Part shown: one piece after another, positions 44,933-53,037 of the stretch
Layout: each line of letters begins with the position of its first letter
Position numbering within the stretch: position 1 is the stretch's first letter
NCBI GenBank assembly: GCA_051306005.1
Contig: JBPPMJ010000006.1
Coordinates: 91,296-155,295, forward strand
Direction: 5' to 3'
DNA length: 64,000 nt
Origin: Minisyncoccota bacterium
GTDB taxonomy: Bacteria > Patescibacteriota > Minisyncoccia > Moranbacterales > UBA1568
Translations under genes and position numbers: made by a program
Notes under the pieces: generated by a model
Database searches by the model: none
Seen by the model: only the letters and a program-made list of their open reading frames with translations
What the model was told of the DNA's origin: nothing

Positions 44933-47284
44933 ATGTCGCGTGATAAGGACTTTTCAAGGCAATCAAAGGAAGATCTGGATCCAGATATGGAAAGATATAG
45001 TGGTTCGGGCTTGTTGTTGCCACGAAGAAATAATCGTAGAAATAAAATAAAGAGAGTTGAGGGTGCGTCGGCAGTCATTTCAACGCAACCTCTTTTGTCA
45101 GCAGAGGTTCCGCCAGTTATTATTTTTACTGATGGAGGGCCTGCCCATAATGAAGCGGTTGTTTTGTTGTCTCATGATACTCTGGAAGAGAAACAAGAAA
45201 ACAATACTGTGCCTATTGCATCATCTCCTTTGTCCGTTATGACACCAGAAGAGACTCTAATTCCTTCAGTAGAGTCAGTGTCCACTTCTTCCGTCGTAAT
45301 ACAAAAACCTCTGATAGCTGATGAGGTAGAGGAACATATACAAAAGGAACATGTGGATGGTTCTCAGTCACTAGTCATGGAATTGTCCGAGCCCATCCCT
45401 GATGTATCGGTACCTGTATTGCAAGATACCGTTTCCCTTCGGATTATCGAAAAAGATAAACGAGAAAAAGCGGTAGCAGAAGCTCGTAAGAAATTTGTAG
45501 AAGAGGACTATAAAAATTCTACTTTGCATAAAAAATTGGGCGCATTTTTCCGTTTTAAAAAACAAGAAATGGAGGAGCATGTTGATGTGCAATATTGGAA
45601 AAATGAATATAAACGTACATTGCAGAGTTTGCAAGAGATGAAATTGGAGGATATTAAAGAGCAAAAAGGCACTGGCGAGGAAACGAAAGAGGCGTTGGCT
45701 GAAACTTTGCTATTTTTCAAACATGAAGCATTGCGCTTGTATCAAGAATACACTCAAGTACGCGAACAACATGCTGGCTGGATAGGCAAGGTTGCCAACA
45801 TGACGACAAAAATCGGAACGGGATACAATCAGCTTTCTTTTCAGCAGAAAATGTTGCTTTCAGGTGCTTTGTTGATTGGTGGTGTGGCAACTGGAGGTAT
45901 GTCAATAGTAGCCAAAAGAATGTTAGCGGGGACAGGAAGTTTTGTGGGCATAGAGGGCGCTTTGCAAAAATGGTTTGATGCTAGAGAAGTGAAACGAGTA
46001 GATAATGATATTCAGACACGGATGCAGGCGGAGCAACATTCGTTTGTGGATGGGGGAAACGCTACTCTCCAGTATGAAACACTACGTCATGTTACCCATA
46101 CCGCTATTGAAGAATTAGATACAAGACTACAGCAGAAAAAATGGGAAAATATGTTGCGAAAAACCATAGCAACAGGTATAGCGGTTGGGATTGGTTCGGG
46201 TATGTTCTCTCATATGGTGACGGGGTATCTACATGGTACTGAGACAGTGTCAGAATTGGGGCGTCCGGTAGGCAACGTACTGATGGGACAGACAGATACG
46301 ATGCTGGATATTGTTGATCATCAGGCATCACCATTGATGGTTACTTCAGATGGTATGCAAATTCCATGGGATGGGACTGACATTGACAGAACACTTTCAT
46401 CACAAGATGCCTTGAAGGTACAGACTCAAAAAATGTTGGACGTTTTGGAAAAGCATACTCCGCATGATGTATTGAGTGCTCATCAAATTCCATCAGCATC
46501 GAATCATTTGGAAGAGATTATGCCAAAAGTTTCGCTTTCTACTTTGTTGCAAGACTATGTATTGACGCGCGCGGATGGATCCCGTGGGCTGTGGGGCATC
46601 ATTGATGCTCAGTTGCCGACAGAATTGGCACGGGAAGAACGTCACGCAATCATCCAAAAAATAGAAAATGTGATTGCGGAACGTTTACAAGATATGTCTC
46701 CAGAGGAACGAAAATTGGCCGGTTTTCCGACCGGTAACATCAATCAAATATATGCTGATGATACGCTACGACTCGGTACATTGCTTACGGAAAACGATAT
46801 CCATGCTATTGTGAGAGAATCTGCTTCTTTTCCATCTGATTCTGTACTTTCTGTTGGAGCGGAAGCGGGTTTGACAGGAGGTGTCATAACTGATCCTCCG
46901 CTTATGGATTTGGATATTCGTCTTGATCGGGATATTCATCTGGGGAAAGCCTATGACATTCAGGCATACAAAGAGTATCTTGTGAAACATCCGGAAGATT
47001 TTCCGGTTTTCAAAAAAATGAGTGCCGAATATGTGGACTTTATCTTTCAAGGTAATATGCAAGAGATGGGTCGGATGGGTAGTTTGACGTTACATGAACT
47101 TACTCCGACAGATATACAACAAACAAAATTAGCAGAATTTTTCCGCTTATCACGTGAAGCTTTTGGTCCAAAGTTGGGTTTGCCGGGAAAACAAGAAAAA
47201 ATGTATGAATATATGATGCGTATGGCAATGCTTGGTATCGAACATCCAACAGGGAAACGTGTGTTTATCCCCAAGTGGATGTAA
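44933..47284 (+). CDS. Hypothetical 783-aa protein with two glycine-zipper hydrophobic segments
   Basis: Long ORF with no recognisable catalytic motifs. Segments LLSGALLIGGVATGGMSIVA and IATGIAVGIGSGMFSHMVTG (GxxxG repeats) lie mid-protein. It is the first gene of a tightly spaced four-gene operon. Confidence 0.6.
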   Translation: MSRDKDFSRQSKEDLDPDMERYSGSGLLLPRRNNRRNKIKRVEGASAVISTQPLLSAEVPPVIIFTDGGPAHNEAVVLLSHDTLEEKQENNTVPIASSPLSVMTPEETLIPSVESVSTSSVVIQKPLIADEVEEHIQKEHVDGSQSLVMELSEPIPDVSVPVLQDTVSLRIIEKDKREKAVAEARKKFVEEDYKNSTLHKKLGAFFRFKKQEMEEHVDVQYWKNEYKRTLQSLQEMKLEDIKEQKGTGEETKEALAETLLFFKHEALRLYQEYTQVREQHAGWIGKVANMTTKIGTGYNQLSFQQKMLLSGALLIGGVATGGMSIVAKRMLAGTGSFVGIEGALQKWFDAREVKRVDNDIQTRMQAEQHSFVDGGNATLQYETLRHVTHTAIEELDTRLQQKKWENMLRKTIATGIAVGIGSGMFSHMVTGYLHGTETVSELGRPVGNVLMGQTDTMLDIVDHQASPLMVTSDGMQIPWDGTDIDRTLSSQDALKVQTQKMLDVLEKHTPHDVLSAHQIPSASNHLEEIMPKVSLSTLLQDYVLTRADGSRGLWGIIDAQLPTELAREERHAIIQKIENVIAERLQDMSPEERKLAGFPTGNINQIYADDTLRLGTLLTENDIHAIVRESASFPSDSVLSVGAEAGLTGGVITDPPLMDLDIRLDRDIHLGKAYDIQAYKEYLVKHPEDFPVFKKMSAEYVDFIFQGNMQEMGRMGSLTLHELTPTDIQQTKLAEFFRLSREAFGPKLGLPGKQEKMYEYMMRMAMLGIEHPTGKRVFIPKWM

Positions 47285-47307
47285 TAATATTGATAATAAA
47301 AATATAT

Positions 47308-47616
47308 ATGCCATTTGAATATGATAGTATCAAGCGTGAACTGATTCAAGACCTTCATTTGGATGTCTTCACTCCAGAACATCAAGAGGAGCTGTTATCC
47401 ATCATGGGTGAAGTGTTGCTCAAGCGTATTTTTTTGGAAACAATGGAGAAGATAGGAGGCACGGGAGTAGCGGAATATGAGAAATTGTTGGATGCTCTTG
47501 CTGGACAAGATCAAATAGACAACTTCTTCGAGCAAAAAATTCCAGGCTATCCTGTTTTTGTACGCAGTATCGTAGATGCTTTCAAAGAAGAAATGTCACA
47601 GGATAAAATGATGTGA
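47308..47616 (+). CDS. Hypothetical small acidic protein (102 aa)
   Basis: The ORF lies 24 nt downstream of the preceding gene. It is acidic and predicted helical, with no homology recognised. Confidence 0.5.
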   Translation: MPFEYDSIKRELIQDLHLDVFTPEHQEELLSIMGEVLLKRIFLETMEKIGGTGVAEYEKLLDALAGQDQIDNFFEQKIPGYPVFVRSIVDAFKEEMSQDKMM

Positions 47617-47643: not shown

Positions 47644-48069
47644 ATGGAAGAAACTCTCATTCCTGAAACAGGAAAAGAAAAACAGGGTGTTGATGCATTG
47701 TTGACATCTCAGGATGAAGCGCCGGCATCATTGAAATCTGGTGAATTGCCCGTGTCTCCCGAAAAGGATTCGGAACAATCTGTAGGGGAAAAACTGGACG
47801 CGTTGTTACATCAAGTGGTAACACCGACCACCCATACTGCATCGATATCTGTCGATGTACAGACGGACGCACAGAATATCGATATGTTGTTGGATGAGGA
47901 GAGTAAAGTACGTCAGTTGGTAGATATGGCTGTGGTCAAAGGAGTCGTCCACGCGGTCGCCGTGGCTAGGAAAATGAATGATTATTATGTGCTGGACAAG
48001 ATGCATGATGAGCTGGTGGACAAACTTTATGACAATCTGCTGACTCAAGGGTTGATTCATAAAGATTAA
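47644..48069 (+). CDS. Hypothetical small acidic protein (141 aa)
   Basis: Co-oriented, with a 28-nt gap. Acidic. No homology recognised. Confidence 0.5.
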   Translation: MEETLIPETGKEKQGVDALLTSQDEAPASLKSGELPVSPEKDSEQSVGEKLDALLHQVVTPTTHTASISVDVQTDAQNIDMLLDEESKVRQLVDMAVVKGVVHAVAVARKMNDYYVLDKMHDELVDKLYDNLLTQGLIHKD

Positions 48070-48127
48070 ATGCGAGATTTCATTATTGTTCGGAGAAGAA
48101 CTTTATATTATTATTGATACTATCGTC

Positions 48128-50617
48128 ATGAACGGTTTTGATCTCAATGTCTTTTTTGAACCAATCCTCATTTTTTTTGCCGGCGTTGCTCTTGTGAGTG
48201 GAGGTTTTTTGGTGTTACGCAGTTTTTTGCGTTTTCGGTATCAAGTCAATCAATCCATCAATATGGATTTGGAAATGGTTCGCGTCATTCGAAAACAGAA
48301 GCCTGAAGGTGGAAATCAGGGTGCCGAGGCATGGAAGGAGGAAATATTGGCGATGGAACAACTTTTGTCTTCACTGACCACGTTGAAAGTAAAAGGGAGT
48401 ATCATTAAACGTCTTTTTTTTGATACCCCTACAATGGTGCTTGAAATTGCCAATCCTTCTTCTAGTGAAGAAATTTTCTTTTACCTGTCTTTTCCGAAAC
48501 GTTTTCGAGAAAGTGCTGAAAAACAGATACATAGCTTCTTTCCTCAAGCTGTAATTGAAAAGGTATCTGATTATACTATTTTTTCCCCAGATAATGTGAC
48601 GGCAGTTTCTGTCTTGGAATTAACACATCAACAACCATTGCCACTTCGCACTTATCGTACCGTGGATATTGATCCGCTCAATGAAATTTCTAATGCTTTG
48701 AGCAAACTTAAGACAGTTGAAGAGGGAGCCGCTATCCAGATTCTTTTAACAGGATCTGGATCGCACTGGCGTAAAGAGGGAAAAATAATCGCGCAAAAAA
48801 TGCAATCTGGTAAACGTCTGAAGGATGCTACCGGACATTCTTTGATACGAGAATTAAGTACATCAGTGGGTAAGGAGGTCATCAGTATGACAGTGAATGC
48901 ACGCAAAACGAAAGGAACTGAAGATTTAAAACCGGTCGTTTTGACTCCGGAAGAACAGGAGTTGGTGAAAGCCATTGATAGTAAGGCTCACAAAGGGGCG
49001 TTTCGTGCCAATATTCGTCTCGTTGCTTCCGGTGAAACAGCGGAGCGAGCAGCGGATATCCTAGCACATATGGAAAATGCTTTTGGCCAGTTTGAAAATC
49101 AGGATGTGAACAGTTTTCGTGTCAAAAAACGCATACATCAAAAACAGAGCGTCTATGATTATATTTTTCGTAACTTTGATGATGAGACCGCTATGATTCT
49201 TTCAGTGGAAGAATTAGCCAGTATTTTTCATTTCCCTATTTCTACAACTGAGACCCCAAAAATTAAATGGCTGAAATCTGGAGCAGCCGCGCCACCAGTC
49301 AATATTCCTAGGGAAGGTATTTTGTTGGGCATAAATGATTATCGTGGTATTAAGACGGAGATTCGTATTACAGATAATGATCGTCGACGTCATATGTATG
49401 TCATTGGACAGACTGGCGTCGGTAAATCAAATTATCTCCAAGAAATGGCTAAGAAGGATGCACGATCAGGAAAGGGTTTTTGTTTTATTGATCCACATGG
49501 TGATGCTATTGAGGATATTTTGACAGCTATTCCGAAAGAACGGGCTGAAGATGTCATTATTTTTGATCCGGCCGATGTTGATCGTCCTATTGGTATCAAT
49601 ATGTTGGAATATGATCCAGCGCATCCAGAACAAAAAACATTCGTTATCAACGAGATGATTGGTATTTTTGACCAATTGTATGACATGAAGGCAACTGGAG
49701 GCCCGATGTTTGAACAATATATGCGTAATGCCATGCTCTTGATTATGGAGCATCCAGAGAGTGGTTCGACACTTATGGAAATTCCTAAGGTGTTGGCCGA
49801 CGAAGAATTCCGTCGATATAAGCTTGCGCATTGTACCAATCCTATTGTGCGTGATTTTTGGTTAAAAGAAGCGGAAAAAGCTGGCGGTGAGGCTTCATTG
49901 GCAAATATGGTACCGTATATCACGTCCAAGCTGACAACTTTCATTTCCAATGATATGATGCGCCCGATTATTGCTCAGCAAAAGAGTGCGATCAATTTTC
50001 GTGAATGTATGGATAGCAAGAAAATCATTTTAGTGAATCTTTCCAAAGGAAAAATCGGAGAAATTAATGCCCGGCTTTTAGGTATGGTGATTGTTGGAAA
50101 GATTTTGATGGCAGCTCTGTCCCGTGTGGATACGGCCGAAGAAAAACGTAATGACTTTTATCTTTATTTGGATGAATTCCAAAACGTTACCACGACATCT
50201 ATTGCGCAAATCTTGTCGGAAGCGCGTAAATATCGCCTTGTTTTGATTCTGGCGCATCAGTTTATTGGTCAGCTCAAGGAAGAGATTTCTAAAGCAGTCT
50301 TTGGCAACGTCGGATCGCTGACAGCGTTTCGGGTAGGGCCAGAGGATGCTGAATTTTTAGAAAAGCAATTTGCGCCCATTTTTTCTGCTAATGATTTGAT
50401 GAATGTGGATAATTATCAGTGTTTCGTCCGGCTCTTGATGAACAATGAGCTCACTAAGCCATTTAATTTGAGGACATATCCGCCGACACACGGAGATCAG
50501 GCAGTCTCAAATGCTCTCAAAGAATTGTCTCGTCTACGCTATGGGCGTGATGCTACGATTGTAAATCGCGAAATTATGAGTCGTATTCAGCTCGCTGAAA
50601 GTACAGTCGGTAGGTAA
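48128..50617 (+). CDS. Membrane-anchored FtsK/HerA-superfamily ATPase of the type IV coupling protein (VirD4/TraG/TraD-like) type
   Basis: N-terminal TM helix. Walker A HMYVIGQTGVGKS...GFCFIDPHGD (GxTGxGKS...DPxGD as in TraD/TrwB). Walker B YLYLDEFQN. C-terminal ARKYRLVLILAHQFIGQL...FGN motif resembling the TraG/VirD4 RxxGxxLxLxxQSxxQL motif. About 400 aa of unknown domain lie between the TM helix and the P-loop. The track ORF uses TTG at 48086, and an ATG follows at 48128. Confidence 0.75.
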   Translation: MNGFDLNVFFEPILIFFAGVALVSGGFLVLRSFLRFRYQVNQSINMDLEMVRVIRKQKPEGGNQGAEAWKEEILAMEQLLSSLTTLKVKGSIIKRLFFDTPTMVLEIANPSSSEEIFFYLSFPKRFRESAEKQIHSFFPQAVIEKVSDYTIFSPDNVTAVSVLELTHQQPLPLRTYRTVDIDPLNEISNALSKLKTVEEGAAIQILLTGSGSHWRKEGKIIAQKMQSGKRLKDATGHSLIRELSTSVGKEVISMTVNARKTKGTEDLKPVVLTPEEQELVKAIDSKAHKGAFRANIRLVASGETAERAADILAHMENAFGQFENQDVNSFRVKKRIHQKQSVYDYIFRNFDDETAMILSVEELASIFHFPISTTETPKIKWLKSGAAAPPVNIPREGILLGINDYRGIKTEIRITDNDRRRHMYVIGQTGVGKSNYLQEMAKKDARSGKGFCFIDPHGDAIEDILTAIPKERAEDVIIFDPADVDRPIGINMLEYDPAHPEQKTFVINEMIGIFDQLYDMKATGGPMFEQYMRNAMLLIMEHPESGSTLMEIPKVLADEEFRRYKLAHCTNPIVRDFWLKEAEKAGGEASLANMVPYITSKLTTFISNDMMRPIIAQQKSAINFRECMDSKKIILVNLSKGKIGEINARLLGMVIVGKILMAALSRVDTAEEKRNDFYLYLDEFQNVTTTSIAQILSEARKYRLVLILAHQFIGQLKEEISKAVFGNVGSLTAFRVGPEDAEFLEKQFAPIFSANDLMNVDNYQCFVRLLMNNELTKPFNLRTYPPTHGDQAVSNALKELSRLRYGRDATIVNREIMSRIQLAESTVGR

Positions 50618-50655: not shown

Positions 50656-53037
50656 TCACTCGGGAATCTTGAGCATAAGCAGTGCGTGGTTTGTTGCTAA
50701 AAAGATTGTATTCGTATTCTCATCAACCACAAATGACTGAATGGTATCAGTCGTACGCACAGGATATTGAGTAAAAAAAGTGCCATCAAGATTCCAAGCC
50801 CTCACTATATTATTGGTATCTAACGCATAGATATGCATGAGTTTGGGGGCAATATAAAGTTGTGTAATAGTAATAGGTGCAGAAATGACGAGCGTTGTTT
50901 GTGTACGACCGCGAGAAAAGGAATGGATTGATTGATCAAAGGCGAGGAAAAGAGCTTCATCTGTTGCCATTTTCGATGTTTCTGTGATAGAGATAGCTTC
51001 CTTGAGCCAAGCGGTTGGTGCGGAGAATCCACCTTCATTGCGGGGGAAGCGGTAGATTTGGTCGGTTTTGCTATCCAATACATAGAGATAGGTGAGATAG
51101 GTAGCTATGGATTGAACTTCAGTGTCAATTGGCAAGGGAAGAGTGTTGTTAGCGAATGTGTTGTTATTTGGACTCCAAGATAGTAATGTCTGTGTATCTG
51201 TGTAGAAAAAGAGAAGATCAAGGTCTGGCATAGGTGTGACCATAATTGGTATTCCTTTGTCGGCTGGAAATGGGAAATGTTTTTCATCAGGCATCCGAAT
51301 AATATCATTGTTGGTAATAATGTATGTTGTATCATTCAAGCGAGTGACAGCGACAATCTGCGTGTGAGTATCAATCGTTATGAGTTCCAGCGGTTGACTA
51401 TGAGTATCAGATACGAGATCTGCGGGCGTTGATTCGATAGGCGTTTGAGAAATATCATTGTCTGAAGATACTGTGGCAGATTTATCAGAATTGGCAAGTA
51501 TCCAGCCGATTACTATGAGGACGAGAATGAGTATACTTAATCCGATCAATATCTGGTATCGTTTTTTGGGATCCAATGTTTTCCATGCAGAGTAGAAAGA
51601 ATGCATGTCATACTTTATTTGGTGTATCCAGTGACGTGAAAAAGCGAGTAATTTTGTGGTGAATAGCTGAGTATCTATACGCATGCTGTTCCACACTTTG
51701 GTGAGGGGGAAATTTTTTATGAATACTGATTGCGTCTGTTTGTCGGTAGGTACGTTTTGTTTCGGACCATTCTTTTGATAAAAGGTCACAAGTTTTTCTT
51801 TTATGAAAGTATGTGTAATAGCATGAGTAGTGAGGTTGTCTAATTGTGTCGGTATGGGCATATCCTGTTCTTTGGGTAAAGATGGTGATATTGCCGTATT
51901 TTTTCTTGTTGTGGTTGATTGGGCGAGGGAAGAGGACCTTTGATGTATGATTTTTTGTATCCTTATAATGCCTTGTTTTTTCACGGATTTCAAAAATATG
52001 AGACTGGATTTTTTGCTTTTACGTAATATTTTTTTATAAGAACGAAGAAACTCTTGTAGCCATTGTCGATAATTTTGATAGCGCAAACTGAAATGTTCGA
52101 TCAATGGATGTGTTTTGGTTGGTATCTGTGTATCGCCCTGAATATAGATGTGTCCTGTTTGAGTATCAATATAATCATCAGATGTTGGGGAGGAGGATGT
52201 TTCGTGTGTTTGGGAAGTAGTGAGAGCCTTTGGTACGCGGTTATCTTCCGCAAAGGCCTGTTTGCTGAAAACATTTTTCACTCTATTGTGATGAGGTCTC
52301 GGAGGTACTGCTACTGGCATTTTTGGTTCGTTGATATCAATAGTAATGATACCAGCCATAGCTAATTCATTGGTCAAGGCGGTGTGTAAAAATCGAATAA
52401 AATGATCATTGGACATGCGAATGGCATTTTTTTCCAATACCTCAGGTGGCAGTACGGAAAATACTTCTGGTGAGGTAAGAATAATTTTGTCGGTCGCTAT
52501 GAGGCGGCCACTAGAAACCTCAACAAAAGTTTTGAGAGGATGGGTGGATGCTTCTTCAGAAGATAGACCTTGTCCAATATCTGAGAGTTGTTTATTGCGT
52601 AGTAAGAGGATAGACGCCTGTCCCGTAATAGAAAAATGAATATTGTTTTTTTCAATAATTCCCAAAACGCCATGCAATTTCCCAAGCCAGGCTACATTGC
52701 CACGTTTCACCAATTCCGCTAAAGCAACATTAATTTTATGGAGACTCGCTTCAAAACTTTCAATGGCACCCCGTCGCGGATTACTAAAATATTCTTTCTT
52801 GGCAACGGAAGCCAAAAAATTGACGATATATGCCATATCATCACCTTTTCCATTGATTGTAAAAATCCCCATCAATGTCCCGAGTGCGCTACCAGCGATA
52901 TTTTCACTACTGACGTGAAAGACATTAATAAAGAGTTTGGTGGTATGTTCGGTAGCGGATACGATTTCCGTTATCGATTTTTGTAGATTCGAAGACGTCT
53001 TCATTTTTTCGATTTGTTTTTTTTCGGACATATTCAC
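50656..53037 (-). CDS. Hypothetical 793-aa single-pass membrane protein (cytoplasmic N-domain, TM, extracellular C-domain)
   Basis: Long ORF convergent with the ATPase gene. Central TM YQILIGLSILILVLIVIGWIL. No recognisable catalytic motif. GTG start at 53037, with an alternative ATG at 53031. Confidence 0.55.
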   Translation of the reverse strand: MNMSEKKQIEKMKTSSNLQKSITEIVSATEHTTKLFINVFHVSSENIAGSALGTLMGIFTINGKGDDMAYIVNFLASVAKKEYFSNPRRGAIESFEASLHKINVALAELVKRGNVAWLGKLHGVLGIIEKNNIHFSITGQASILLLRNKQLSDIGQGLSSEEASTHPLKTFVEVSSGRLIATDKIILTSPEVFSVLPPEVLEKNAIRMSNDHFIRFLHTALTNELAMAGIITIDINEPKMPVAVPPRPHHNRVKNVFSKQAFAEDNRVPKALTTSQTHETSSSPTSDDYIDTQTGHIYIQGDTQIPTKTHPLIEHFSLRYQNYRQWLQEFLRSYKKILRKSKKSSLIFLKSVKKQGIIRIQKIIHQRSSSLAQSTTTRKNTAISPSLPKEQDMPIPTQLDNLTTHAITHTFIKEKLVTFYQKNGPKQNVPTDKQTQSVFIKNFPLTKVWNSMRIDTQLFTTKLLAFSRHWIHQIKYDMHSFYSAWKTLDPKKRYQILIGLSILILVLIVIGWILANSDKSATVSSDNDISQTPIESTPADLVSDTHSQPLELITIDTHTQIVAVTRLNDTTYIITNNDIIRMPDEKHFPFPADKGIPIMVTPMPDLDLLFFYTDTQTLLSWSPNNNTFANNTLPLPIDTEVQSIATYLTYLYVLDSKTDQIYRFPRNEGGFSAPTAWLKEAISITETSKMATDEALFLAFDQSIHSFSRGRTQTTLVISAPITITQLYIAPKLMHIYALDTNNIVRAWNLDGTFFTQYPVRTTDTIQSFVVDENTNTIFLATNHALLMLKIPE

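Follow-up and report, generated by a model that had tools for sequence, protein, structure and literature searches.

VirB4 ATPases are soluble and possess an N-terminal docking domain, whereas VirD4 coupling proteins carry two transmembrane (TM) helices and no such domain. To which of these does a protein belong that has the motor motifs of a coupling protein (T4CP) and the size of a VirB4? The question is raised by a gene in the 64,000-nucleotide stretch of Minisyncoccota bacterium DNA analysed here, hereafter the window (assembly GCA_051306005.1, contig JBPPMJ010000006.1, positions 91,296 to 155,295 of the forward strand). From the letters alone, a sequence-only reading had described a hybrid, with a long unrecognised domain between the TM anchor and the ATPase, possibly representing a distinct clade of transporters in CPR. 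We consider, with a probability of about 0.6, that the gene belongs to a distinct and widespread subfamily of the FtsK/HerA superfamily, in which a T4CP-type motor is joined to a DUF8128 domain of predicted VirB4 N-domain fold; the function given to it below is one that we infer.

Domain layout of the ATPase

The coding sequence starts at ATG 48128. An in-frame TTG upstream, at 48086, finds no support as a start in the lengths of the homologues. An identical 829-residue protein is deposited at NCBI as MGK2849193.1, under the name 'type IV secretory system conjugative DNA transfer family protein [Minisyncoccota bacterium]'. The GC content is even throughout the window, and a promoter and terminator scan between 44.6 and 51 kb returned background counts. 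The following features were assigned.

48128..50617 (+): coding sequence of the 829-residue DUF8128/T4CP-like ATPase, stop codon included
48152..48223 (+): single N-terminal TM helix, residues 9-32 (Kyte-Doolittle window >1.5; AlphaFold helix 6-44)
48260..49333 (+): N-terminal domain, residues 45-402, Pfam DUF8128, predicted VirB4-NTD-like alpha/beta fold
49334..49630 (+): RecA-like nucleotide-binding domain, first part, residues 403-501, containing Walker A and IDPHGD
49406-49429 (+): Walker A, GQTGVGKS, residues 427-434
49490-49504 (+): DPHGD, residues 455-459, within IDPHGD
49631..50014 (+): all-alpha insertion, residues 502-629, separating Walker A from Walker B and placed like the all-alpha domain of TrwB
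50015..50497 (+): nucleotide-binding domain, second part, residues 630-790, with Walker B, SEARKY, AHQFIGQL and GNVG; TraG-D_C match at 677-745
50159-50179 (+): Walker B, YLYLDEF, residues 678-684
50252-50275 (+): 'Q-rich' motif, AHQFIGQL, residues 709-716
50498..50614 (+): C-terminal helix pair, residues 791-829 (AlphaFold model)

Among the Pfam models singled out by the sequence-only reading, TrwB_AAD_bind (30.4 bits, cut-off 20.5, residues 413-483), TraG-D_C (25.9 bits, cut-off 22) and DUF87, the HerA central domain (25.6 bits, cut-off 23.2), scored above threshold; T4SS-DNA_transf fell under its cut-off (14.3 against 20.1), and CagE_TrbE_VirB gave no match in the 829-residue protein. The DUF87 model also matches a T4CP-like Sulfitobacter protein and the VirB4-like gp155 of phage G. 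In a set of 49 diverse members, TrwB_AAD_bind was matched by all 49, TraG-D_C by 47 and T4SS-DNA_transf by 28, with CagE_TrbE_VirB outside the 25 most-matched of the 29 families found. In NCBIfam, the protein matched TraD, VirD4-like and TraG families best and none for VirB4; the scores were far from the T4CP equivalog and subfamily cut-offs (SXT_TraD, the best, 31.6 bits against 366; CD1115, 27.8 against 250). A profile search of the PDB retrieved TrwB (1.2e-7) and DotL (1.7e-5) and no VirB4.

The family was placed by HMM scores against 15 reference sequences, in place of a tree. The HMM of the C-terminal half gave 37.5 bits for TrwB, 10.9 for TraD and 7.2 for PcfC, compared to 4.0, 0.2, -0.1 and -1.6 for four VirB4s; the TcpA/FtsK/SpoIIIE translocases scored 7-10 bits. 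With hhalign, run against single reference sequences, the ATPase half aligned to TrwB with a probability of 96% (E 3.7e-9) and to TrwK with 10.6%. Only this contrast was used, because alignments of full-length PcfC and PrgJ and of the N-domain with TrwK were uninformative, at 0.2-5% even for PcfC. By sequence, the ATPase half is T4CP-like and closest to TrwB/VirD4/DotL. The Walker A motif indeed lies near residue 430, as had been noted, and the VirD4/TraG character earlier ascribed to DPHGD and the Q-rich motif is upheld by the TrwB_AAD_bind and TraG-D_C scores, the Q-rich segment falling in a TraG-D_C match above the gathering threshold. Residues D682, E683, E698, R700, K701, Q711, Q715, G726, N727 and G729 are invariant in 49 diverse homologues. 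Judged by sequence, the motor is catalytically intact, because Walker A, Walker B, the Q motif and both the Arg and the Lys of SEARKY show no variation.

The N-terminus contains one hydrophobic segment, at about residues 9-32, and hence only one TM helix. By the same method, two helices were found in TrwB, PcfC, TraD and TcpA, three in FtsK, and none in the VirB4 controls except for one internal segment in TcpF. The premise that coupling proteins begin with two TM helices therefore holds for the canonical controls but not for this protein. The helix is absent from the Paceibacteria, plasmid and SP-10 phage forms, and the N-terminus of phage G gp156 is also free of one.

Residues 40-400 had no match in the local Pfam copy, which was without the PF26449 model, in line with the original impression of a region devoid of recognisable motifs. 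That impression is corrected by the precomputed Pfam annotation, in which PF26449 (DUF8128) covers the N-terminal region of the identical protein and of 119 listed homologues; the region is thus catalogued, though without functional annotation. The domain contains a conserved motif, EELASIFHFP, with H368 invariant, and a predicted disordered loop at about residues 250-270. Used alone, it is matched by 1588 clusters at 50% identity.

The DUF8128 domain is predicted to fold like the N-terminal domain of VirB4. The link is structural, drawn from the predicted model and one solved structure; further Foldseek matches were the VirB4-like gp155 of phage G and a 'component of type IV transporter system'. 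At the sequence level, comparison with VirB4 yielded 0.2% for TrwK with hhalign, at most 5 bits with hmmsearch and no match to CagE_TrbE_VirB, and a profile search of the PDB with the N-domain, like member-wise Pfam scans, returned noise only. The proposed hybrid architecture is therefore borne out, a T4CP-like ATPase following an N-domain with a predicted VirB4-like fold; the confident alignment along the middle region that would have made this an ordinary VirB4 was not obtained, the match being structural only. In R388, the N-domains of VirB4 link the protomers to one another and touch both the membrane and VirB3/VirB8.

Partner protein, gene neighbourhood and relatives

Three genes upstream of the ATPase gene were annotated.

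44933..47284 (+): 783-residue protein, whose gene opens the Moranbacteria cassette (relatives of 783-1255 residues)
47275..47616 (+): small DUF5663 protein (Pfam PF18908, 24.4 bits)
47644..48069 (+): 141-residue partner protein, directly upstream of the ATPase in about 20 loci

The 783-residue protein matched no family in Pfam, PADLOC or PHROG. The DUF5663 protein probably starts at ATG 47308, a start favoured because its relatives are 100-110 residues long; it occupies the same position in L001-L004, L006, L007 and L010 and lies near the ATPase in L013, L020, L067 and L080. The N-terminal half of the 141-residue protein is poorly conserved and of low complexity, and its C-terminal part carries the conserved motif KG[VI]xxAxxVAxKMxDPxxLDxFHDxLV. 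In about 27 Paceibacteria loci it is fused to the N-terminus of the ATPase, and the TM helix is absent there. Judged from these sequences, the 141-residue ORF is a conserved partner of the ATPase, split or fused. It matched no Pfam family, and a large-database search with it yielded just 5 proteins. Two other upstream proteins were considered and set aside: the one of about 165 residues found in ABY1-like lineages (hhalign 0.1% to the partner), and those of about 255 residues in Paceibacteria ('cluster 0'), a single-linkage artefact that on inspection of the sequences resembles methionine aminopeptidase.

The ATPase gene is no chance feature: of 8000 candidates that were scored, 4983 proved to be homologues at E<=1e-5, and a species-representative genome set contains at least 599 stretches with one. 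The 119 closest relatives listed are 73-85% identical and mostly labelled Moranbacteria. Patescibacteria widely carry the gene, on the chromosome and amid housekeeping genes, and it is apparently inherited vertically. In the window, a few genes separate it from a POTRA/FtsQ-type gene upstream; Paceibacteria copies come immediately after S5-L15-SecY-Adk-Map, and dnaX adjoins it in other genomes. The gene context varies across lineages and synteny is kept inside them. All neighbours that could be named, between 40 and 57 kb of the window and among the recurrent families of 80 related loci, are housekeeping genes. No T4SS gene was recognised in the same Pfam-scanned interval or neighbour families, no relaxase was found near the ATPase in Patescibacteria, and no homologue of VirB3, VirB6 or VirB8 adjoins it.

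A 2025 survey recorded T4CP homologues for 2918 of 3035 genomes of Patescibacteria, most of them distant from virB4, with only 148 of 5713 lying near it; about 600 of the genomes have no VirB4 (PMC12102498). A bona fide VirB4 (PF19044) stands beside TrsD, VirB3 and VirB2 in the part of Table S3 compared, with T4CP matches elsewhere and separate TcpA/FtsK-like 't4cp2' matches in the same genomes (PMC12102498). The single tie between our family and the 't4cp1' class is one genome, GCA_000991405.1, whose gene #596 corresponds by position in the part of the table compared; QQR78354, PJA85288, MBI2439136 and KKW11044 are absent from that part. The T4SS of Patescibacteria is essential to growth on host bacteria, and the essential Southlakia cluster is without a recognisable coupling protein (PMC10633639). 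The t4cp homologue of Southlakia is reported to have been non-essential for epibiotic growth (PMC12102498).

Full-length homologues, with both N-domain and ATPase half, were also found on Bacillaceae plasmids and elements and in large Bacillus phages (BLASTP 6e-43 and 3e-44; 20-27% identity overall, 20-23% for the phage proteins). The N-domain HMM scored 95, 109 and 73 bits, and the C-terminal-half HMM 169, 177 and 113 bits, against WP_128472464.1, phage G gp156 and SP-10 gp203, respectively. PF26449 is assigned to many Bacillaceae members. Plasmid relatives from haloarchaea, Sulfolobus and Streptomyces were noted as well. WP_128472464.1, of 885 residues, is encoded on the B. licheniformis plasmid NZ_CP035190, where its gene adjoins a Replic_Relax relaxase and is followed by TcpC, TcpE and, beyond TcpE, a large 'ATP-binding protein' that is, from its annotation only, presumed to be VirB4/TcpF-like. 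The homologue sits in the coupling-protein slot of this Tcp-like module. The suggestion of a distinct clade in CPR thus finds no support: the same architecture occurs on Bacillaceae plasmids and elements and in Bacillus phages, the N-domain is already DUF8128, and Patescibacterial T4CP homologues had been counted in the survey (PMC12102498). Pfam and NCBI already list the family, under generic names, and its range extends beyond CPR.

Alternative origins and proposed role

A housekeeping DNA translocase unrelated to T4SSs, serving chromosome segregation or DNA uptake as a functional counterpart, derived from T4CPs, of FtsK/SpoIIIE or the archaeal Ced ATPases, is an unlikely identity for the protein. 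The chromosomal core-gene setting, the wide distribution and the lack of a relaxase nearby would suit such an enzyme, as would weak NCBIfam matches to CedD and CedB, and exaptation is left possible by the survey's authors (PMC12102498). However, the Pfam FtsK_SpoIIIE model scored 12.5 bits against a cut-off of 24, and the motor domain above threshold plus gamma domain expected of FtsK/SpoIIIE members was not found. Genomes in the part of Table S3 compared have their own TcpA/FtsK-like 't4cp2' (PMC12102498), and a comEC-dependent competence has already been described in Saccharibacteria. Moreover, no conserved division-specific linkage was seen, because the gene context differs by lineage.

We give still less credit to the protein being the organism's own VirB4, too divergent for VirB4 HMMs and with a VirB3-like TM helix fused ahead of it. 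Its size of about 800 residues, the predicted fold of its N-domain and the forms without TM helix (plasmid, SP-10 and Paceibacteria, with phage G gp156 likewise at its N-terminus) point that way. Against it, CagE_TrbE_VirB and PF19044 were absent at E<=1, AAA_10 was matched in only 6 of 49 members and no NCBIfam VirB4 family was hit; the TrwB/TrwK contrast and the C-terminal-half scores of at most 4 bits for four VirB4s also favour a coupling protein. Furthermore, a separate VirB4 or VirB4-like protein accompanies the ATPase in Patescibacteria genomes (part of Table S3 compared, PMC12102498) and in phage G, which encodes both gp156 and gp155, and the Bacillus plasmid has, by annotation only, a second large ATP-binding protein in the TcpF position.

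A HerA-type helicase or translocase of a defence or repair system is very improbable. The DUF87 score and a PADLOC match to mad8 (E 6.3e-13, residues 417-735), with weak HerA models too, would be expected of one, but the gene families that recur beside the ATPase in the 80 loci include no NurA, Sir2, DUF4297, Dnd or MADS partner, the modelled N-domain appears to differ in fold and to lack a HAS-barrel, and near-universal vertical conservation in one phylum, in a ribosomal-operon context, is atypical for defence islands. Finally, a prophage or mobile-element remnant can practically be dismissed: the closest non-Pfam profile is a phage family (phrog_5156, E 6.8e-89, residues 101-819), homologues occur in 24 Bacillus-group phage records and C-terminal-half relatives on 282 plasmids, but neither phage nor plasmid genes were seen in the flanks or recurrent neighbour families, each lineage keeps its gene order, the phage homologues share little identity with the protein and GC is uniform.

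We therefore retain the T4CP-type motor with a DUF8128 domain. Such an ATPase would form a ring, presumably of six subunits, on the cytoplasmic side of the membrane; its single N-terminal TM helix gives way in Paceibacteria to the fused 141-residue partner. By analogy with VirB4, the N-domain may constitute a membrane-proximal tier that docks the ring to partners or to other protomers, and the motor would spend ATP to recruit a DNA or protein substrate and push it toward a translocon. In Patescibacteria its role is probably other than conjugation, because the gene lies on the chromosome, seems to be inherited vertically and has a relaxase-free neighbourhood; most likely it would act as a separately encoded coupling or receptor ATPase of the T4SS, or as an exapted translocase. 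A bolder proposal, which we hold as speculative and rather doubtful, is that DUF8128 ATPases are a third ancient lineage of T4SS motors, intermediate between or ancestral to VirB4 and VirD4, which kept a VirB4-type N-domain on a coupling motor and, with the 141-residue protein as adaptor, would be the missing T4SS substrate receptor of Patescibacteria.

A large, conserved subfamily in which a coupling motor is joined to a predicted VirB4-like N-domain bears on the divergence of VirB4 and VirD4, and offers a concrete coupling-protein candidate for the Patescibacteria T4SS. The split-or-fused partner suggests an interaction that can be tested. Practical value is limited, because the family is already catalogued and its function is inferred throughout.

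Comparison with known systems

Unlike TcpA, FtsK and SpoIIIE, which lack a VirB4-like N-domain, the protein is predicted to have one and stays below the FtsK_SpoIIIE cut-off. It differs from HerA in having no HAS-barrel and, among the recurrent neighbour families, no NurA-type partner, and in its T4CP-type all-alpha insertion.

With VirB4 (TrwK of R388; PrgJ, TraC, TcpF) it shares its length and its plan, an alpha/beta N-domain followed by a C-terminal ATPase, and the plasmid, SP-10 and Paceibacteria forms are likewise free of TM helices. However, its N-domain has no sequence similarity to that of VirB4, its C-terminal half scores to T4CP models, and genomes, plasmids and phages with a DUF8128 ATPase also carry a separate VirB4-like or presumed VirB4-like gene.

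The closest likeness of the motor is to the VirD4/TrwB coupling proteins (TrwB of R388, DotL, Cag-beta, TraD), with which it shares the RecA-like domain and its all-alpha insertion, and the succession of Walker A, DPxGD, Walker B DE and Q motif. Canonical T4CPs pass from two N-terminal TM helices to the nucleotide-binding domain, whereas here one helix or none is followed by a predicted VirB4-like domain of about 360 residues. The Patescibacteria gene is also without the relaxase/T4SS neighbourhood of coupling proteins, which the Bacillus plasmid homologue has. The Bacillaceae-plasmid and phage DUF8128 ATPases are homologous over both halves but have no N-terminal TM helix; they are found in a Tcp-like conjugation module by a relaxase or in a phage genome, whereas their Patescibacteria counterparts are chromosomal and lie among housekeeping genes.

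Gene, motifs and ATPase half

The ATPase gene is a genuine open reading frame (ATG at 48128, stop at 50617, + strand), and its 829-residue product is identical to the deposited protein MGK2849193.1, 'type IV secretory system conjugative DNA transfer family protein [Minisyncoccota bacterium]'. Its features are as follows.

Features of the ATPase
Residues ~9-32: single hydrophobic segment (hydropathy scan)
Residues 427-434: Walker A, GQTGVGKS (motif scan)
Residue 455: DPHGD (motif scan)
Residues 678-684: Walker B, YLYLDEF (motif scan)
Residues 709-716: 'Q-rich' motif, AHQFIGQL

When 49 diverse full-length homologues (31-81% identity to the query) are aligned, G427, G430, G432, K433, D455, P456, G458, D682 and E683 are invariant, as are E698, R700, K701, Q711, Q715, G726, N727 and G729 further on. 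The catalytic apparatus, as judged from this invariance of its motif residues, is therefore intact. The sequence-only reading had described gene and motifs correctly, except that there is one transmembrane helix instead of two and that its '~400-aa unknown domain' is already in Pfam as PF26449 (DUF8128), an accession listed for the identical protein and its homologues. The local Pfam copy does not contain this model, so that a local scan shows nothing over the domain. With the same hydropathy method, two N-terminal helices were found in each of TrwB, PcfC, TraD and TcpA, unlike the single helix of the window protein; TrwK, PrgJ and TraC have none, and TcpF has one internal segment only.

The ATPase half is coupling-protein-like. 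TrwB_AAD_bind (30.4 bits), TraG-D_C (25.9 bits) and DUF87 (25.6 bits) score above the Pfam cut-offs on the window protein, the TraG/VirD4-type TraG-D_C over the Q-motif region, as the sequence-only reading had anticipated; T4SS-DNA_transf falls under its cut-off and CagE_TrbE_VirB gives no match. Among the 49 members, TrwB_AAD_bind matches 49, TraG-D_C 47 and T4SS-DNA_transf 28 (best E 1e-15), and the 25 most-matched of the 29 families hit include no VirB4 N-domain model. The best partial NCBIfam matches are to TraD, VirD4-like, TraG and CedD models, all far under cut-offs, and no VirB4 model was matched in that search. Against PDB sequences the family profile finds TrwB (1.2e-7) and DotL (1.7e-5) and no VirB4. 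By hhalign, the family aligns to R388 TrwB with 96% probability (residues 412-718 against TrwB 114-392) and to R388 TrwK, a VirB4, with 10.6%.

Scores of the C-terminal-half HMM (bits)
TrwB (T4CP): 37.5
TraD (T4CP): 10.9
TcpA (TcpA-type T4CP): 9.8
FtsK (translocase): 7.3
PcfC (T4CP): 7.2
TraC (VirB4): 4.0
TrwK (VirB4): 0.2
TcpF (VirB4): -0.1
PrgJ (VirB4): -1.6

A full-length AlphaFold model from the 49-sequence alignment (pLDDT 87.4, pTM 0.78) contains a RecA-like domain into which an all-helical segment (residues 502-629) is inserted. Coupling proteins and the VirB4 C-terminal domain are barely told apart by its structural comparison, but clearly by sequence profiles.

Structure-comparison scores of the AlphaFold model
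TrwB: 24.6 (361 residues aligned)
DotL: 23.7
HerA: 23.3
VirB4 C-terminal domain (4ag5): 22.4
DndH C-domain: 22.0
Cag-beta: 21.9
TcpA: 17.1
FtsK: 16.7

PADLOC mad8, a component of the MADS defence system, also matches the ATPase core (residues 417-735, 49376-50332; E 6.3e-13). This match probably reflects common FtsK/HerA-type ancestry, not a defence role.

N-terminal domain and 141-residue partner

A separate model of residues 40-402 (27-sequence alignment; pLDDT 85.2, pTM 0.83) has one disordered loop. Foldseek searches of viral models with this domain gave an independent link to phage G gp156 (3.9e-19), the adjacent gp155 (1.8e-8), which by Pfam is VirB4/TraG-P-loop-like (PF19044, AAA_10), and a 'component of type IV transporter system' (8.4e-6). 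The fold is predicted to be VirB4-like; hhalign, HMM and profile searches gave no sequence-level link at all between the domain and VirB4. The hybrid proposed from sequence, a VirB4-type front (by predicted fold) on a coupling-type motor (by sequence profiles), is supported. Our literature search found no mention of DUF8128 and no published description of this predicted fold or of the split-or-fused partner described below.

The 141-residue ORF (47644-48069, + strand) lies directly upstream of the membrane-anchored form of the ATPase (790-870 aa) in ~20 loci. Its HMM also matches the first ~130 residues of 850-970-aa Paceibacteria proteins without a hydrophobic segment in ~27 loci (E 1e-12 to 1e-4), and both versions have the motif KG[VI]xxAxxVAxKMxDPxxLDxFHDxLV.

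Loci with the partner fused to the 5' end of the ATPase gene (~130 codons)
L029, L036, L039-L043, L045-L047, L049, L050, L057, L058
L060-L063, L065, L069, L070, L072, L075-L077, L081, L083

The partner belongs to no Pfam family, and a large database search with it returned only 5 homologues. The ATPase therefore exists in two forms, with a transmembrane helix and a separate partner, or with the partner fused in the helix's place. This pattern argues for a physical interaction between the two proteins, in which the conserved partner may be an adaptor or an anchor.

Genomic setting in Patescibacteria

In a scan that took a single genome for each species, at least 599 stretches were confirmed, and 80 loci were kept from them. 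They span Patescibacteria (Moran-, Uhr-, Falkow-, Komeili-, Nomura-, Taylor-, Zambryski-, Wolfebacteria and others), and here, judged from the 40-57 kb flank of the window and the recurrent neighbour families of the 80 loci, the gene lies outside mobile elements and T4SS clusters. In Moranbacteria relatives and the window the series begins with a POTRA/FtsQ-like gene and two minus-strand PMT_2 glycosyltransferases; next come a large protein without annotation (783-1255 aa), DUF5663, a protein of ~140 aa, the ATPase and a convergent ~800-aa unannotated protein. In Paceibacteria, S5-L15-SecY-Adk-Map precede the gene and NDK and a beta-CASP RNase follow; in ABY1-like lineages its neighbours are a ~165-aa protein on one side and, on the other, a ~210-aa protein and then DnaX.

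The large flanking ORFs of the window (44933-47284, 783 aa; 50656-53037, minus strand, 793 aa) match nothing significantly in Pfam, PADLOC or PHROG, and both are positionally conserved among Moranbacteria relatives (clusters 22 and 12). The DUF5663 gene follows the 783-aa ORF, and in other lineages (L013, L020 and L080) a DUF5663 gene with a large ORF before it likewise recurs near the ATPase. As listed, the DUF5663 ORF (47275-47616) starts at a GTG and overlaps the upstream gene by 10 nt; ATG 47308 (MPFEYDS...) is the more likely start, since GTG adds ~11 residues relative to the 100-110-aa relatives. At 0.38-0.45, GC content is uniform across the 64 kb and gives no sign of an island near the ATPase gene. 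Every 2-kb window of 1-64000 has a positive GC skew (0.09-0.24) and the majority of large ORFs lie on the + strand, consistent with the leading strand of one replichore.

Several TPA metagenome bins (L004-L007, L019, L021, L023, L024 and others) are titled 'uncultured Bdellovibrionales', 'Gammaproteobacteria' or 'Candidatus Saccharibacteria'. These titles look mislabelled, because the gene is present in L004-L007 at 66-79% identity, with Moranbacteria synteny retained in L004 and L006.

A published survey found that 2918 of 3035 Patescibacteria genomes together encode 5713 T4CP homologues, only 148 of them near virB4; it also describes a separate VirB4 (PF19044) in a cluster with TrsD, VirB3 and VirB2, and reports a Southlakia t4cp homologue to be non-essential (PMC12102498). 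The essential Southlakia T4SS cluster has no recognisable coupling protein (PMC10633639).

Relatives on phages and plasmids

The N-domain alone matched 1588 clusters (at 50% identity); full-length members have 790-970 residues, with the domain N-terminal to the ATPase in every case. Family phrog_5156 matches residues 101-819 (E 6.8e-89), and homologues are encoded in 24 large Bacillus-group phage records; phage G gp156 aligns over 759 residues (E 3e-44). In phage G (JN638751.1, 4192-8334), gp155 lies directly upstream of gp156, and the two are a T4SS-type two-ATPase pair in a jumbo phage. The C-terminal half has relatives on 282 plasmids, among them plasmids of Streptomyces, Bacillus, Nostoc, haloarchaea and Sulfolobus. 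The closest non-CPR relative by far is a 395-aa protein of a Sulfitobacter mediterraneus plasmid (NZ_CP081110.1, 5917-7104), which comprises the ATPase half only (36% identity, C-terminal-half HMM 344 bits). Two transposase genes follow it and a recombinase gene lies upstream of it; the protein may represent a copy that was truncated or transferred.

The architecture first noticed is real and under-described. The suggestion of a distinct clade in CPR is not supported: the combination of DUF8128 and T4CP domains is already catalogued and widespread, and extends to Bacillaceae plasmids and Bacillus phages.

By analogy with TrwB, DotL and VirB4, the ATPase would assemble into a ring, in which the N-domain may form a tier that mediates docking and contacts between protomers, as a review describes for VirB4. 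It would handle a DNA or protein substrate using ATP. In Patescibacteria it may serve the chromosomal T4SS, a link to which co-localisation lends no support, or have been exapted as a translocase.

The ATPase is homologous to plasmid proteins in the coupling-protein slot. On NZ_CP035190, a B. licheniformis plasmid of 27.6 kb, a Tcp-like transfer module begins with the gene for an 885-aa homologue (N-domain HMM 95 bits, C-terminal-half HMM 169 bits), many of whose Bacillaceae relatives carry PF26449. Next in the module come a Replic_Relax relaxase, TcpC, TcpE and another large 'ATP-binding protein', incomplete at the locus end and, from its annotation, presumed VirB4/TcpF-like. The strongest available evidence that the subfamily is capable of acting as a coupling protein is this module, as its gene order places the homologue in the position of TcpA in pCW3.
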